Positions 3,485 to 16,726 of a DNA stretch of 64,000 nt are shown piece after piece; position 1 is the stretch's first letter, and each line of letters starts with the position of its first letter. The DNA lies in the NCBI GenBank assembly GCA_038245295.1, contig JBBRSP010000026.1, forward strand, positions 19,810 to 83,809. The letters are read 5' to 3'. This stretch comes from Candidatus Binatia bacterium (GTDB taxonomy: Bacteria; Desulfobacterota; Binatia; HRBIN30). The translations under genes and the position numbers were made by a program. The notes under the pieces are model-generated. The model searched no databases, had not been told where the DNA came from, and saw only the letters and a program-made list of their open reading frames with translations.

Positions 3485-4345
3485 CTAGGATGCCTGACGG
3501 TCGAATTGGGCCTGCAGGCGCCACTCGGCCGCATAGAGGGCGGTGCGCATGCCGACGCGCATCAGCAAGACGCCTTCGGCCAGCAGCAACGACAGAGCAC
3601 TCCCTGCACTCGATGTTGTTGGCAGGTACACACTCGCCTGGACCTGGCAAAACGACAAAAGCAGGCCAAAGGCTAAGAACAGCGCCAGCAGGGTGGCCGC
3701 TCGTGCGCCCTGACGCCGCAGGAAATGCAGCGCCCAACGGAACGAGGCGGCGGCGCCGCGTTCGCTATGAAGGACCGACAGCCGCGCATGATCGTGGACT
3801 AACATTAATATCGACACCACTACCAGCGTTGCACCGCCGGCAGTGATCCAGATCCCGAGCACGGCAAACTCTCCTGCCCCGTCGCCCAGGTGATGTTTCG
3901 TCCATCGAGCAATCACCAACGCCGCCGCCACAGTCACCGCCTGAGCCAGCCACACACCCGCCGCCAAACCAATCAACCGCGGGAGCGCCCGAAGCGCCGC
4001 GCGCGCATGCGGGCGTACCAGCCCATCGTGTTGCGCGACGGCCGAGGCAATCAACCCGTTTGCCCAGATCGACAGCACCAAGCCCATTCCTGCCAGCACG
4101 ACCAGTTCGCGTACCCCAGCCATGACACGCGCCGATTGATTTGCGAGGAGGTCGAGCCATACCTGTGGGTCGGCGTCGACCAGCAAGCTTCGCGTCGCCA
4201 ACGCATCGTCGAGAGCCGCGCCAAACCACATCCATAAGAAGGCCAGGCAGACCAGCCCGAGCGTCGCGTTGAAGGCGAAGCAGCCAAGCACCAATGGCCG
4301 CGAATGCAACGCGAAGCGCCAACCGTACCGAAATGCCCCGCGCAT
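3485..4345 (-). CDS. Multi-pass membrane protein, hypothetical, co-oriented with the M1 peptidase
   Basis: About 6 hydrophobic segments; ATG at 4345 lies 5 bp after the peptidase stop. Confidence 0.7.
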   Translation of the reverse strand: MRGAFRYGWRFALHSRPLVLGCFAFNATLGLVCLAFLWMWFGAALDDALATRSLLVDADPQVWLDLLANQSARVMAGVRELVVLAGMGLVLSIWANGLIASAVAQHDGLVRPHARAALRALPRLIGLAAGVWLAQAVTVAAALVIARWTKHHLGDGAGEFAVLGIWITAGGATLVVVSILMLVHDHARLSVLHSERGAAASFRWALHFLRRQGARAATLLALFLAFGLLLSFCQVQASVYLPTTSSAGSALSLLLAEGVLLMRVGMRTALYAAEWRLQAQFDRQAS

Positions 4346-4350
4346 GGAGT

Positions 4351-6324
4351 TTAGAGCCCACCCAGGAAGTGCAGGACAGTCTGAAACCAGAGCGCCCCGC
4401 GGCCGCTGACGCGGATGATGCCGCGCGTCCCAGCCTCCCGCATGCGTGAATTGTTGAGCCAATTGATGTCCGTCATCAAGACATGCGACGGATCCACCAC
4501 CGCCCACTCGACCCGTTGGGAGCCCGAGTATTCGAAACGCCGCCAGCGTTCCTGGCCGTCCCAGTGCTCGTGCGTCGTCGTTCCGTCTTCGAAAGTCACT
4601 TCCACGTCTACGGGCAAGCGAACGTCTCCGAGTCGCTCGATGACGACTTCGCTGGCATAACGCTTCTCAGCGTCAGGGGCCGCCGCCGTCAACGGTTCCA
4701 CCACGCCGTTCGCCCCGATGCCGCGCCCGGCAAATGACGGCTCTTGATGCGAGTCGACGCGGGTGACCGCAAAATCGACCGTGCCACTGCCCTGAATCAG
4801 TTGGTCGATCCACGGGCTGAGATCCTTGCCTCCCGCCCGGTTCAGGTGTGCCAATAAGTTCTGCCGTGTCGGGTGCCGGAAGCGCCAGGTGTTCGCATAT
4901 TCCGCGAGCGTGGTGCGTAACACATCCGGCCCGACGACGCGGGCAAGTGTCTCCAACACCAATGCGGTTTTCGCGTAGGAGACGGCTGCGTAGCTTTGGC
5001 GATCGATGAACTGCCAGCCCATGCGCACCATCGGATCGCGACTCGCGGACTGCAAAAATAAGGCACGACGAAACAGCAATCGATCGAAGCGCAACCCGAA
5101 GAAATCAGCATAACTGCCCGGTCCGTAGGTCTCGTCCATGATCAGGCCTTCGACGTATGAGTTTATCCCCTCGTCGAGCCACGCCTCTTCAAACTCATTG
5201 TTGGCAACCAATCCGTACCAATACTGGTGTCCGAACTCGTGAACCGTCACGTATTCCGGGAGCCGTATCCGCGCCGGCATCGCCCAACTCGTTCCCGCGG
5301 TGATCAGCGTTGGATATTCCATTCCCCCCGCTTCGCGGCCATCGTATGGCGGATCGATGATCGTCAACTGGGCGTAGGGGTACTCCCCAAACCATTTTTC
5401 ATAGTATCGCAGCGCTGCCGAGGCGGCATGTAGGTAGCGATCGCGTTGGCGGACATGTGCCGGTTGCACCAGCAGGCGGATGCGGGTCGAGCCGACGTTG
5501 TGATCGACCGTGACGAAGCGCGGATCAATCGCCCAGGCAAAGTCGTGGACCGGCTCAGCGCGAAAAGTAAGTGTCTTTGTACCGTCCCCGTTGACCTTCT
5601 CGTCGGTCAACGAGCCGGTTGCACCGACGACGCCTTCGCTAGGAACCGTGAGGCGCACATCATAACGTCCAAAATCGGAGAAAAATTCCGTGGTCGAATG
5701 ATATTGGTGGCAGTTCCAACCGGGACCGTCGAAGACAGCCAACTTCGGGAACCACTGCCCCATCATGGTGAATGGCCCGACGTGCCCTGCCCTCGCCTGG
5801 ACGCGCGGGACATGCCCGGTAAAGCCGATATCGAGGGAAACGCTCTCACCCGGTTCGATGGGTCGCGGCAGGCGAACCTCGACTACAGTTCGGTCATCGA
5901 CATTGTTGTCGTCGGGATGCAGAAAGCGCAGGGAATCAATGATCGATACTTCACCGACCGCGATACTTTCGATGGCCATCGAGCCCCACGCGTCGGCGTG
6001 CTCTTGGTCTTCCTGCCAATCGTCGGTTGTCCGGTGAGTCTCACGAAAGAAGGTCGATCGGGTGTTAGCGAAGGCGTTCCAATAGAGGTGCAAACAAGCG
6101 GTCGTCGCCTGCACCGGCGTACCGTTCGTCCACGTGATGCGCTCGGTTCCACGAATCGTCTGCGCCGACTGATCGTAGCGTGCTTCGATTCCGTAGTCGG
6201 CGGTGGATTCAAGGGCCATCGCACGGGCGCCGGCGAGTGCGACGACGAACACGGCGGTCGAAACCGCTATCAGCGGATGCCCCGGCTTGCGTCGAAAAGC
6301 ACCCATCGCCACTTGCCGGCTCAA
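4351..6324 (-). CDS. M1-family zinc aminopeptidase, exported
   Basis: GGMEYP exopeptidase motif, HEFGH followed by AWLDEG zinc motif, signal peptide. Start is 6324 (TTG) or 6306 (ATG). Confidence 0.9.
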   Translation of the reverse strand: MSRQVAMGAFRRKPGHPLIAVSTAVFVVALAGARAMALESTADYGIEARYDQSAQTIRGTERITWTNGTPVQATTACLHLYWNAFANTRSTFFRETHRTTDDWQEDQEHADAWGSMAIESIAVGEVSIIDSLRFLHPDDNNVDDRTVVEVRLPRPIEPGESVSLDIGFTGHVPRVQARAGHVGPFTMMGQWFPKLAVFDGPGWNCHQYHSTTEFFSDFGRYDVRLTVPSEGVVGATGSLTDEKVNGDGTKTLTFRAEPVHDFAWAIDPRFVTVDHNVGSTRIRLLVQPAHVRQRDRYLHAASAALRYYEKWFGEYPYAQLTIIDPPYDGREAGGMEYPTLITAGTSWAMPARIRLPEYVTVHEFGHQYWYGLVANNEFEEAWLDEGINSYVEGLIMDETYGPGSYADFFGLRFDRLLFRRALFLQSASRDPMVRMGWQFIDRQSYAAVSYAKTALVLETLARVVGPDVLRTTLAEYANTWRFRHPTRQNLLAHLNRAGGKDLSPWIDQLIQGSGTVDFAVTRVDSHQEPSFAGRGIGANGVVEPLTAAAPDAEKRYASEVVIERLGDVRLPVDVEVTFEDGTTTHEHWDGQERWRRFEYSGSQRVEWAVVDPSHVLMTDINWLNNSRMREAGTRGIIRVSGRGALWFQTVLHFLGGL

Positions 6325-11319: not shown

Positions 11320-11391
11320 ATCGCCAACGTTCGGACTACCGGTCGAGCGATCAAACCATGCGTGATCGCTCGACCGGCGTTGCGCTGTTGC

Positions 11392-11754
11392 TTACTTGTC
11401 CAGGACCAGAAGCTGGCCACCGATGTGGGCCGGATGGAGCTGGCAGTTGATTGGGAAGACCCCTGCCTTGTCGGCGGTGAATTCGACTTCCTTCGGCTCG
11501 CCGCGCGTGACTACCGCTTCGACGCCAAAGGCCTCGATCTTGTACCCGTGTTGGTTCGGATCCGCCTTTACGTTGTTGATCAGCTTGATCTTCACCTTGT
11601 CGCCCTTGTGGACGACGAGCGTCGAAGGCACCCAGATTTTGCTGCCCTCGTATTCGACGTTGACGACGGTGAACGACTGATCGTCGGCGCGTACCGCGCG
11701 ACTGCCTATCACGACGGCGGCAGCGGCCAGAGCCACCAGAGTTGCCTTACGCAT
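11392..11754 (-). CDS. Exported cupredoxin, nitrosocyanin-like
   Basis: Signal peptide; P.TLVV.KGD.V, HG..I.AFGV, FTADKAG.F.I.CQLHPAH; AAGGAGGAG RBS upstream of ATG 11754. Confidence 0.88.
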   Translation of the reverse strand: MRKATLVALAAAAVVIGSRAVRADDQSFTVVNVEYEGSKIWVPSTLVVHKGDKVKIKLINNVKADPNQHGYKIEAFGVEAVVTRGEPKEVEFTADKAGVFPINCQLHPAHIGGQLLVLDK

Positions 11755-11897
11755 TAGACTCTCCTCCTTTTGAACTGAGACGAAAACCGATGACTCCACT
11801 TTCGCCACATCAGGCGAACGAATTCAACTAACCAAGTTCTAGCCGGCTTCTCGCCCCACCCTGGCAGACCCGACGATTCCTGTGTACATCGCCGCAC

Positions 11898-12764
11898 ATG
11901 TCGACGGAGAAGGCGAATACCGCAACGTTGCTGGTGGCGTGCCGTGATCGCAAAGGGCTGGTGGCCGCCCTGGCGCAAATGCTTTACGGACACGGCGCGA
12001 ACATCCTCGCGGCGGCACAACATACGGATCGCGCCGAGGGGCAGTTTTTCCAGCGCATCCACTTCGACCTCAGCGAGCTGCATACCGATCGCGTCGCCCT
12101 CGAAAGCGGTATCCGCGAGGTCGCGCAGCGTTTCGATATGCGCTCATCGCTGCACTACGGTAGTGCGCGCAAGCGCATGGCGATCTTCGTCTCGCGCTAC
12201 GATCATTGCCTATATGATCTCGTCCTGCGGCACCGGGCCGGCGAACTTTCAGGCGACATCGCCCTGATCGTCAGCAACCATGACGACCTTCGACCGATTG
12301 CCGACCACTTCGCTCTCCCTTTCCAGCTCTTTCCGATCGACAAAACCAACAAGGCTCAACAAGAGGAAGCTGAGCTAAGGCTATTGGAAAAGCACAGGAT
12401 CGACCTCGTCGTGCTGGCTCGCTACATGCAAATTCTCAGCGCTGAATTCATCAACCACTTCGCGGCGCGGATCATCAACATCCATCACTCGTTCTTGCCG
12501 GCCTTCGTGGGGGGCAAACCGTACCATCAAGCCGCCGAACGTGGCGTCAAACTCATCGGCGCGACGGCGCATTACGCAACGACGGATCTCGACGAGGGCC
12601 CAATCATCGAACAGGACGTCATTCGCACCTCGCATCGCGACTCGATCGACGATCTTATCCGCAAGGGCCGAGATGTCGAGCGCGCCGTCCTCTCTCGCGC
12701 TGTCCGCTGGCACCTCGACGACCGCGTCATCGTCCACGGCAACAAGACAGTCGTCTTCGAATAG
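11898..12764 (+). CDS. purU: Formyltetrahydrofolate deformylase
   Basis: ACT-like N-terminus, VLARYMQILS, INIHHSFLPAF.G.KPY.QA..RGVK.IGATAHY, DEGPIIEQ. Confidence 0.97.
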   Translation: MSTEKANTATLLVACRDRKGLVAALAQMLYGHGANILAAAQHTDRAEGQFFQRIHFDLSELHTDRVALESGIREVAQRFDMRSSLHYGSARKRMAIFVSRYDHCLYDLVLRHRAGELSGDIALIVSNHDDLRPIADHFALPFQLFPIDKTNKAQQEEAELRLLEKHRIDLVVLARYMQILSAEFINHFAARIINIHHSFLPAFVGGKPYHQAAERGVKLIGATAHYATTDLDEGPIIEQDVIRTSHRDSIDDLIRKGRDVERAVLSRAVRWHLDDRVIVHGNKTVVFE

Positions 12765-12931: not shown

Positions 12932-13210
12932 ATGAATAAGACGTGGATGAAGCGTAGCATCGCCATCGGCCTCCTGTTGGGAATGTTCAGCCTCGGTTTT
13001 CTGGTCGGATCCGTGCAGCGCAATCGCGCCGAAGCGCAAAACCTGAAGGACCTTGGCGCCGCGGCGATGGAAAAGGCGGGGGAATCCGGCGGAGCCATGG
13101 GGTCGGCGGTTCAGCTAGGCACCTCGATCGTTGACATGCAGAAGCACGTGGATGGCCTGCAGAAGAACCTCGAGGCGCTCAAGAAGGTTAAGGAAGCACT
13201 CGGCGGCTGA
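12932..13210 (+). CDS. Small exported or membrane-anchored helical protein, hypothetical
   Basis: GGGAG RBS, hydrophobic N-terminus with A-E-A site, coiled-coil-like C-terminus, typical codon usage. Confidence 0.75.
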   Translation: MNKTWMKRSIAIGLLLGMFSLGFLVGSVQRNRAEAQNLKDLGAAAMEKAGESGGAMGSAVQLGTSIVDMQKHVDGLQKNLEALKKVKEALGG

Positions 13211-13400: not shown

Positions 13401-14606
13401 TCAGAGACGTTTCGCCCGCGTCTCGAGGTGCTCGATCTGGCCGTCGTCGCGCTGGTGCAGGACGTCATTGTAACTGGCTTCACCACGATGATGGTGTGCC
13501 GCCGGATGTGCGAAGGAAACGATGGCGCTGATGCGATAGCCGTCGCGCCCCGCCTGGGTTGGCGGTGGCGCGGCGTGGACCGTGTCGCTGTGGTGCAAGG
13601 ACACGTCACCGGCTCGGGCTCGAAAATGAGCCGCATGGTGGTTGGCGTCCGTGCGGCGATCGTGTGCATTGAACGAGGTTTTGTGTGATCCCGGCAGCAT
13701 CGCCAGCTCGCCACTCTCGGGGGTTGCTGCGGTCAAGAAAATCGAAGCAACGAGGATGGGGCACATCGTTGCGTGCCCTCCCATCCCGCAGTCGCGGTGC
13801 CAAGGTAGGTCGCCAAGACCTTCGGTCATACCGGGTCGCTTGAAGATCACCGTCACGCCCTCCCCTTCGCCACGTTTGTGCACGAATTGGGCATCACCGA
13901 GCGCCTTGAGCTGTTGCAGACGCGTGTCGCCTGGCAGAGTCGCCAAGCGGGGTTTGGACGATCCGCGCGTGACTCGACACAAGAGATCGGTTCCCCGCGC
14001 ATCTCTGCCCCACCAGGACAGCTTGTCGCCCGGACGCGCTTCGCGAGCCAACTCATCAGCCTCGTCCCGAAAAGCCGCTACCTCGTCGTCGGCAAACACA
14101 CCGCGTACGAAGAGGTATCCGGTTGTGTCGAGGAAATGGGCCATCGTCCGGCGCTCTGCCGTGAAAGAAAATATCGTCTCCAGCTTGAGTGCACCCCCGT
14201 CACGATCGATGAGTGAGCGGCGGGCCGGATCGAACGGCGGCCGGCCGTTGTACAAGGCTCGCAAACCTGACTCCCAAGCCATGAAATCCATGGCGTTGCC
14301 TCGCAAACAGCGCACGCGGCCGGCGTAAAGTAATCCGGCGGCCGCTTCGACCTCCTCGACGAGCCCCTGCCAGCTCTCGTGGTCCATCTCGATAATTGTG
14401 CCTGCCGTCGCATCGCCTGGTCGGATGGCGAGCCCAACGGCGGTGCGTTCGTACGTGAAGGCCGTGCCATCCGAGAGACGCAGCGCCAGGCTTCCCAGGC
14501 CCGCCGTCGCCTCCGCGGTTGCCCCGCATCGCGTCGGCGTCATCAGCTGCGGCAGCATACGTTGGTGGAACTCGACGAAGTCGACCGTCGGACCGCGCAT
14601 TCCCAT
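13401..14606 (-). CDS. Phytanoyl-CoA dioxygenase (PhyH)-family Fe(II)/2OG enzyme with SCP2-like N-terminal domain
   Basis: WHRD (HxD), GEL..LPGSH and GDV.LH...T.H facial-triad pattern; N-terminus resembles a sterol-carrier fold. Confidence 0.8.
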
Positions 14607-14701
14607 GGCCGCTGGGTAGCAGTTTTCGGTGGTGGGACGGTAGTACTTTTGACGCCACACCCTGCAGCGTCGGGGCGTTCTTGTGCTACGCACCCACCCG
14701 C

Positions 14702-16726
14702 ATGAACCGTGAAGGTCAATTTCGTTTGGTCTCCGAATACACGCCGCAAGGCGACCAGCCCCAGGCGATCGACGAGCTGACACATGGACTCGAAAACGAG
14801 CGGCGGCATCAGGTACTGCTGGGCGTCACCGGGTCTGGGAAAACCTTCACCATGGCGCACGTGATCGCGCGGGTGCAGAAGCCGAGCCTGATCCTGGCGC
14901 CAAACAAGACGTTGGCGGCGCAGCTCTACAACGAGTTCAAGGTTCTCTTCCCGGAGAACGCCGTTCGCTATTTCGTCAGCTACTACGACTACTACCAGCC
15001 GGAGGCGTACGTCCCGAGTTCGGACACGTACATTGAGAAGGACTCGTCGATCAACGACGAGATCGACAAGATGCGCCATTCGGCGACCAAGGCGTTGCTG
15101 GAACGCAACGACGTCATCATCGTCGCCAGCGTCTCTTGTATCTACGGTCTTGGTTCTCCCGAGGCGTACTTCGACATGCTGGTGTTTCTGGAGAAGAACG
15201 CCGAGGCCGATCGCGACGCGATCTTGCGCAAATTGGTCGACATCCAATACGAGCGCAACGATGTCGACTTCCATCGCGGTACCTTCCGTGTGCGTGGCGA
15301 CGTCGTCGAAGTATTTCCAATTTCCGAGGACTCCCGAGCCATCCGCATCGAATTCTTCGGTGACACAGTCGAGGCAATCTCCGAGATCGATCCGCTGCGC
15401 GGTCAGGTCGTGCGCTCCCTCGAAAAGATCGCCCTCTATCCGGCCAGTCACTACGTGACGCAGCCGGAGCGCATGGAACAAGCCGTACGCAACATCCGCC
15501 TCGAGCTCACCGAGCGGCTCAAGCAGCTGCACAGCGAGAACAAACTGCTCGAGGCGCAGCGCCTCGAGCAACGCACGTTGTACGACCTGGAGATGCTGCA
15601 CGAGATGGGATTCTGCAATGGCATCGAAAACTACTCGCGCCATCTGACCGGTCGCATTCCGGGTGAGCCACCGCCGACACTGCTCGACTACTTCCCCGAC
15701 GATTGGCTGCTCTTCATCGATGAGAGCCACGTCAGCGTTTCGCAGGTCGGCGGTATGTACCGCGGCGATCGGGCCCGTAAGGAAACACTCGTCGAGTATG
15801 GGTTCCGTCTGCCGTCGGCGCTCGACAATCGCCCTCTCAACTTCCAGGAGTTCGAGGCGTTGACGCGCTACGTCGTTTACGTGTCCGCCACACCGGGCGA
15901 GTACGAACTGCGGCGCAGCGAAGGCGTGGTTGTCGAACAAATTATTCGGCCGACGGGGCTTACCGAGCCCGAGATCGAAGTACGGCCGGCCGGCACGCAA
16001 GTGGACGATCTGCTCGAAACGATCCGGCAGATCATCGAAAAACACGAGCGGGTGCTGGTTACGACGTTGACCAAGAAGATGGCCGAGGACCTGACCGATT
16101 ATCTTCAGGAGCTCGGCGTGCGGGTGCGCTATCTGCACTCCGACATCGAAACTCTCGAGCGCATCGAGATCATTCGCGACCTGCGACGCGGCATCTTCGA
16201 CGTCCTGATCGGGATCAACCTGCTACGTGAAGGGTTGGACATCCCGGAGGTGTCCCTGGTGGCCATCCTGGATGCGGACAAGGAAGGATTCTTGCGTTCC
16301 GAGCGATCCTTGATCCAGACCATCGGCCGGGCGGCGCGTAATGTGAACGGCCGGGTCATTCTCTACGCCGACAGGATCACCGATTCGATGCGTCGGGCAA
16401 TCGATGAGACGGATCGCCGACGCGCCATTCAGGAGCGCTACAACCAGGAGCATGGCATCACACCGCAGACCATCCAGAAGGCCATCGCGTCGTCGTGGTC
16501 CGAGATGATGGATGCCGACTATGTCGACCTGACCAAGGTGGCCGAAAGCGAGGGTGAATACACCAGCCTGGCGGCCCTCACCAAACGTATCGCGGCGCTG
16601 CAGAAAGAAATGCGCGATGCCGCGGGTAAACTCGAATTTGAACGCGCCGCTACGGCGCGCGACGAAATGCGGCGCCTCCAGGAGCGCGAGTTAGCACTGC
16701 GCGAAGCGCGTGGTCTGGCCGAATGA
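14702..16726 (+). CDS. uvrB: Excinuclease ABC subunit B
   Basis: [36 protein letters not shown]-terminal UVR domain (LEFERAA..RD). Confidence 0.99.

Follow-up and report, generated by a model that had tools for sequence, protein, structure and literature searches.

A natural cupredoxin family related to nitrosocyanin, with a predicted copper site of three histidines and one cysteine

Type 1 (blue) copper sites have an intense absorption band near 600 nm and a small EPR hyperfine coupling. Their axial ligand is described as weak or absent, most commonly a Met (PMC10804444), and the amicyanin ligand loop, CTPHPFM, as the shortest natural type 1 loop (PMC6115626). A 2024 structural paper presents nitrosocyanin, NcyA of Nitrosomonas europaea (PDB 1IBY, 1IBZ and 1IC0; TIGR03096), as the sole red cupredoxin known from nature (PMC10804444). 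Its red type 2 copper is reported to have a band at 390 nm, a large hyperfine coupling and a potential of +85 mV (PMC13746201), and oxidation of NO at its open site is the leading guess at its role in nitrifiers (PMC13746201, PMC5960693). Among laboratory variants, azurin Met121His is reported to form a type 1.5 site (PMC4059628), and the imidazole adducts of Ami-TtCuA and Az-TtCuA, which carry His/Cys/His on a CuA scaffold, to be type 2 and nitrosocyanin-like (PMC6115626).

The window analysed here, the whole stretch of 64,000 nucleotides from a Candidatus Binatia bacterium, encodes a cupredoxin, P0002, between serS (convergent) and purU (divergent) (Table 1). An earlier note, made from the letters of the window, had quoted this gene and its motifs; both are real, as the minus-strand frame of 120 codons translates into a protein with PSTLVVHKGDKVK, QHGYKIEAFGV and FTADKAGVFPINCQLHPAHIGG, and the strong ribosome-binding site claimed for it was found ahead of its ATG. 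The N-terminus, with a basic start, a hydrophobic core and a V-R-A end, is likely a Sec signal peptide, and no twin-arginine motif was seen in it by eye. The predicted mature protein has 97 residues (10.7 kDa), with a single Cys and four His (positions 49, 69, 107 and 110); the ligand loop was said to lack Met, and the whole mature chain does. P0002 scored 47.6 bits on PF13473 (Cupredoxin_1), above the gathering threshold of 27, and its AlphaFold2 model had a mean pLDDT of 91.6. The CuA two-Cys loop (C-x3-C-x3-H-x2-M) is absent from the mature chain with its one Cys, and NosZ models matched P0002 only far under their cut-off.

Table 1. Features of the cupredoxin locus (positions in the window)
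Feature	Position	Strand	Basis or remark
Cupredoxin precursor P0002, coding sequence	11392..11754	minus	120 aa; translation, Pfam, homologues, fold model
Ribosome-binding site AGGAGG	11763..11768	minus	8 nt 5' of ATG
Likely Sec signal peptide, residues 1-23	11686..11754	minus	by-eye reading; model helix 2-16
First strand and short hairpin stub, residues 25-42	11629..11682	minus	strands 25-35 and 38-42 in the model
His69 codon, N-terminal metal-ligand position	11548..11550	minus	aligns with nitrosocyanin Glu60; His in other cupredoxins
Ligand loop Cys104-x2-His107-x2-His110	11425..11445	minus	amicyanin-length, His at axial Met position
Promoter-like element, TTGAAT-12 nt-TGTGG-non-consensus -10 hexamer	11799..11827	minus	39 of 70 upstream regions
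Perfect 15-bp inverted repeat	11339..11377		between converging serS and cupredoxin stop codons
purU, divergent neighbour	11898..12764	plus	context only; Pfam Formyl_trans_N + ACT
uvrB open reading frame	14519..16726	plus	context only; here 3 kb away, usual divergent neighbour in Binatia-labelled genomes

The specific affinity to nitrosocyanin that had been proposed was borne out by sequence, by profile and by fold; best matches to generic cupredoxins, named beforehand as the refuting outcome, did not occur. The closest PDB sequence was 1IBY (E 1.7e-17, runner-up 7.9e-7), the family profile gave 3.2e-20 for nitrosocyanin and 1e-6 for the next PDB sequence, and nitrosocyanin ranked first in a Foldseek search with the AlphaFold2 model. 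In a structural alignment ranking drawn from Foldseek's top 1000 chains, 1IBY was aligned with Z 16.5-16.6 and an rmsd of 1.1-1.4 A over 91-92 residues (47% identity at 91), and the second entry was Bacillus anthracis cupredoxin 1 (PDB 4HCF; Z 14.2). P0002 passes the Pfam cut-off of the grouping that goes with 4HCF, PF13473, but is only 21% identical to 4HCF, and PF13473 is a broad fold grouping that defines neither a ligand set nor a function. Matches in the ESM Atlas were to 'cupredoxin-like' clusters only. P0002 is a relative of nitrosocyanin, not a member of the nitrosocyanin family: on TIGR03096 it scored 73.1 bits, against a curated cut-off of 142.85, and true nitrosocyanins from metagenomes scored 276.3 and 183.6 bits.

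Nitrosocyanin is an exported single domain, as P0002 likely is, and the two proteins share the C-Q-L-H-P start of the loop and a His as its final ligand. They differ at three places. His69 of P0002 aligns with Glu60 of nitrosocyanin, and the ligand loop is C-x2-H-x2-H instead of C-x2-H-x4-H, two residues shorter, both as predicted in the earlier note. The third is the N-terminal hairpin region. Nitrosocyanin is reportedly a homotrimer, and its trimerisation hairpin had been thought deleted in P0002; the shortening is real (16 residues from the first-strand Phe to a conserved Pro, compared with 34 in nitrosocyanin, thus 18 fewer), whereas full deletion does not hold, since a two-strand stub stays in the model. 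The data show no direction, and insertion of the hairpin in nitrosocyanin is no less likely than its deletion in the P0002 lineage. A natural relative of 97 residues with different conserved ligands offers a direct comparison for the contributions of Glu60, the longer loop and the hairpin.

It had been suggested that the copper site was rewired at the Glu position, which is not what the comparison gives. The N-terminal ligand column is His in 12/12 Met-type and 10/10 CuA-type cupredoxins and in 104/107 family domains, and is Glu in 18/18 nitrosocyanins; because of these counts, His69 is read as the ordinary cupredoxin state and Glu as the novelty of nitrosocyanin. Amicyanin-type blue cupredoxins have the same N-terminal His and the same His...Cys-x2-His-x2-X spacing as P0002, but there X is Met, whereas it is His in P0002, and the P0002 sequence is far less similar to theirs than to that of nitrosocyanin. 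Since the P0002 loop has the spacing of CTPHPFM, His110 occupies the axial Met position. Judged from the aligned sequences, the odd ligand of P0002 is this His110 at the Met position; His103 is described as the ligand with the same role in nitrosocyanin (PMC10804444, PMC13746201). P0002 thus has the N-terminal His and the loop Cys and His of a type 1 site (His69, Cys104 and His107), and does not have the weak or absent axial ligand, the His110 position being His in 302/302 family domains.

Homologues numbered 1110 at E<=0.001 among 1153 candidates, and the four presumed ligands were invariant in the best 120 of these 1110 matches (120/120). Searching 1.84 billion cluster representatives with a profile yielded 210 matches at E<=1e-10, of which the best 150 were retrieved. 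The His/Cys/His/His set predicted earlier was found across homologues: in a census of 302 non-redundant, near-full-length domains of at least 60 bits, which excludes nitrosocyanin loci and contains many near relatives, H69 was kept in 299, C104 in 300, H107 in 302 and H110 in 302, with a single Cys in 294. The hairpin stub is conserved in the same domains (Lys39 in 272, Trp41 in 275, Pro43 in 297). Since three His and one Cys sit at the metal positions of a copper fold, P0002 likely binds copper. Conservation and register suggest that His110 points at the metal. It is very unlikely that His110 is a non-ligand, leaving a three-coordinate His/Cys/His site, or that the metal is Zn, Ni or Fe. His3Cys sets do bind other metals in other folds, and cupredoxin folds occur in iron uptake (FtrB is among the structural matches), but His110 is kept in every domain of the census, its position is that of a ligand in amicyanin (Met) as well as in nitrosocyanin (His103), and the closest relatives of known structure bind copper.

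The family occurs in many non-nitrifier lineages, unlike nitrosocyanin. Database labels at 77 genome loci were mainly Candidatus Binatia; the others were Methylomirabilota/Rokubacteria, Elusimicrobiota, Bdellovibrio/Oligoflexia and Actinobacteria. Seventy-one of these loci were taken as family members, six being set aside because they were of CuA type, lacked the ligands or were fragments; the set overstates the conservation of the loop because its search patterns include the loop. Among 251 genomes of the class, 112 had a match at E<=0.001 and 91 a match at E<=2.4e-29, followed by a gap to 5e-13; these 91 were counted as carriers and the other 160 as non-carriers, and the ligands were read in the subset with fetched loci. 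Members are labelled in databases as 'cupredoxin domain-containing', 'plastocyanin', 'nitrosocyanin' or 'oxidase subunit 2', and an automatic 'nitrosocyanin' label on a His3Cys member is no sign of ammonia oxidation. In open-access full texts, nothing was found that describes a natural His3Cys family of cupredoxins, which leaves room for a prior mention elsewhere; the family is apparently unstudied. A bioRxiv paper on anammox deals with a multicopper oxidase domain and is unrelated.

We tentatively favour, at somewhat short of probable, the reading that P0002 is an exported cupredoxin with one copper at His69/Cys104/His107/His110, serving as a periplasmic one-electron carrier together with c-type cytochromes. 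The protein would be exported by Sec and loaded with copper in the periplasm, and one copper is predicted to be held by the four residues. As His110 would give a stronger fourth ligand than the weak Met that it replaces, the site would be tetragonally distorted and green to red (type 1.5 to type 2), with a potential below that of a blue site. The protein would relay electrons between a cytochrome c and some terminal acceptor, for example a haem-copper oxidase of the host. Azurin Met121His and the adducts of Ami-TtCuA and Az-TtCuA have the same nominal donor set of three His and one Cys as P0002, and by analogy would bracket the expected site between type 1.5 and type 2 (PMC4059628, PMC6115626); a site intermediate between blue and red, as first proposed, is what these engineered proteins suggest. 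They are laboratory variants, whereas the P0002 set occurs in nature and is kept across hundreds of proteins; the family would be a natural counterpart to a site that has so far only been built by mutation.

The cytochrome in this favoured reading comes from gene neighbourhoods. A gene for an exported di-haem cytochrome c lies directly downstream on the same strand in 12/71 loci, separated from the cupredoxin gene by -4 to 69 bp (another cytochrome, at a distance of 5 kb, is not counted), and the pairing occurs in 8/91 carrier genomes of the class, in three families. This cytochrome is the sole recurring neighbour with a redox function. It is absent from the window locus and from 59/71 loci. 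Because paired members cluster in trees, the pairing probably arose once. The cytochrome-linked subgroup points to electron transfer and gives a candidate redox partner. The host's nearest homologue of the cytochrome (40%) heads a cbb3-type oxidase cluster (G000:C8:63300-69200; L267:7301-13193), in which the di-haem cytochrome c gene comes first and which also has ccoN, ccoO and a heavy-metal ATPase gene; the host genome has six COX1-family matches in all. Elsewhere in the host genome, a 545-codon open frame (G000:C71:2768-3094) has a partial match (70 bits) to the HAO-type multi-haem family PF13447.

The type 2 imidazole adducts fit an open catalytic site as well, by the same analogy, which counts against the reading as a closed electron carrier. 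An open red site of the nitrosocyanin kind, with Cys, His, His and water in plane and His69 apical in the manner of Glu60, would bind or convert a small molecule such as NO and pass an electron to cytochrome c. We consider this possible, if somewhat unlikely. Of the solved proteins, nitrosocyanin, with its open site and proposed NO oxidation (PMC13746201, PMC5960693), is much the closest relative, the His3Cys-like imidazole adducts are type 2 (PMC6115626), and pairing with a di-haem cytochrome c is compatible with such a site too; but the loop is as short as that of amicyanin, the long hairpin is missing, and the activity of nitrosocyanin is itself putative. The distribution of NirK is a lead in favour of such a site. 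NirK was found over its cut-off in 4/91 carriers and 25/160 non-carriers of the class sample, and two near-complete genomes, G110 and G469 (L274 and L275), in a genus where 22/24 genomes carry the His3Cys gene, lack it beside uvrB and, with the queries used, genome-wide, and have a high-scoring NirK. NirK is thus rarer in carriers, in a pattern that is confounded by kinship and may reflect very few events. Against the open site, no nitrogen-oxide gene was found among the recurring neighbours, and neither NirK nor NosZ was found over its cut-off in the host genome.

The small size of P0002, its single domain, its likely export and the near absence of fusions would also suit a role in handling copper in the periplasm, as a chaperone or buffer that binds Cu(I)/Cu(II) and supplies it to haem-copper oxidases. 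Cupredoxin-fold copper chaperones exist (CupA is among both the sequence and the structure matches), and the host has several oxidases. We judge this role improbable, since the mature chain has no Met and no His/Met-rich tail, and the recurring neighbours include no copper ATPase, oxidase assembly gene or copper regulator (no copper exporter or sensor was found among the neighbour families scanned). Rigidly conserved four-ligand sets such as that of P0002 are also commoner in redox sites.

Copper membrane monooxygenase (PF02461) gave no match in the host genome, which is 96.6% complete, in a search that was positive in 53/251 class genomes; this supports the earlier suggestion that the lineage does not oxidise ammonia. 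Among the 251 genomes, 37 had the cupredoxin and the monooxygenase, 54 the cupredoxin only, 16 the monooxygenase only and 144 neither. Co-occurrence with the monooxygenase had been put forward as a check; 54/91 carrier genomes, the host included, show none, and no requirement is seen. A role as an accessory of the monooxygenase or of C1 metabolism is most improbable. The raw enrichment (37/91 carriers, 16/160 non-carriers) and the adjacency of purU in the window speak for it. The enrichment is driven by one family, which accounts for 31/37 co-occurrences; the monooxygenase is in 0/39 other genomes of the host order and in 0/23 genomes of a family with 21 carriers, and where both genes occur they are far apart (in G445, 2.59 Mb vs 0.52 and 3.84 Mb). 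The link to C1 metabolism drawn from purU fails in the same way, purU adjoining 0/71 homologues. Together with the lack of a monooxygenase in the host, this largely refutes the accessory role.

The other genes around the cupredoxin in the window, serS, a 92-aa frame and a PhyH gene, are likewise beside 0/71 homologous loci. Recurring neighbours, taken from a simple gene caller that miscalled some genes, were uvrB in divergent orientation (at least 32 of the 71 loci), a kinase (28), an NtrC-type regulator (23) and an ECF sigma factor (20). As uvrB persists 3 kb upstream in the window, purU looks like a local insertion. The kinase-regulator pair of other loci is present in the host on another contig. 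The 92-aa protein (12932-13210, plus strand) has an N-terminal hydrophobic segment, no family match and a paralogue on contig C24. At 3485-6324 of the window (minus strand) there is a gene for an M1-family peptidase, then a membrane-protein-like frame of 340 aa without a Pfam match.

A promoter-like element (Table 1) was present at fixed spacing in 39/70 upstream regions, compared with a mean of 2.1 and a maximum of 7 in shuffled regions and with 12, 1, 2 and 1 at other spacings. It stays with the cupredoxin gene where the neighbours differ, and presumably acts as a promoter, although a strict sigma-70 scan did not call it. A regulon search found no strongly matching site in the host genome besides this one (28.9; next 20.4), which gives no regulon, and no sigma-54, LexA, FNR or cop-box pattern was seen ahead of the window's cupredoxin gene. 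The inverted repeat folds better than 200 of 200 shuffles (0/200 fold as well; z -4.39); it has no U-run and was not called as an intrinsic terminator, and is likely a shared terminator or a 3' stabiliser.

For the trees 84 columns were available, and the CuA outgroup was not cleanly one-sided. In a quick tree of 147 rows, nitrosocyanins formed one clade (SH-aLRT 99) among the His3Cys members. A mixture-model tree of 59 rows was built with the ligand columns removed; of its 30 family rows, 17 were random and 13 chosen. It joined the family and nitrosocyanin at 86/61. The main His3Cys group and nitrosocyanin were sisters in it at 83/75, leaving seven His3Cys rows outside this pair, and no bootstrap tree (0/200) had a branch that split off the family alone. 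With the 147-row alignment, an AU test rejected neither a family clade without nitrosocyanin (p 0.30) nor the family together with nitrosocyanin (p 0.55). As monophyly of the His3Cys family was not rejected, nesting of nitrosocyanin is only suggested, and a position inside the family is weakly favoured over a sister placement. A distant member, P0200, has His69 with a loop of nitrosocyanin length (x4) and groups inside the family.

The His3Cys family may show the state from which nitrosocyanin arose. The full proposal, that it is a natural His3Cys class with its own chemistry, and the stock of nitrosocyanin by way of a His-to-Glu change, a two-residue insertion in the loop and insertion of the hairpin, is in our estimate unlikely. 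If it were true, and if the open site acted on NO or another small molecule, the red-copper chemistry of nitrifiers would predate nitrification, and such chemistry would be spread through abundant uncultured soil and groundwater phyla.

Several sequences in or near the family deviate from the common pattern. Asp replaces His69 in P0141, the Cys is lost in P0185 and P0187, and P0175, P0228 and P0200 have longer loops (x3 or x4); sequencing errors may account for some of these variants. Among 90 longer candidates, a weak test for fused forms, there were two matches, both of which look like assembly chimeras. P0240 has a His3Cys domain at the C-terminus of an exported protein of 290 aa, the N-terminal part of which is YceI-like by eye. 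P0128, P0129 and P0249 have three tandem C-x2-H-x3-M cupredoxin domains and a tree position close to the His3Cys family, and P0227 is a similar repeat protein in which the ligands are lost.

Metagenome stretches that matched a loop pattern encoded nitrosocyanins in 75/119 cases. True Glu-type nitrosocyanins with a lipoprotein-like N-terminus were seen at L164:1117-1557 (TIGR03096, 183.6 bits) and also at L138, L146, L201 and L254, and in frameshifted form at L145. The gene order at these loci, unlike the usual context in nitrifiers, is MarR - glutaredoxin - nitrosocyanin - protoglobin - ATPase-domain regulator.
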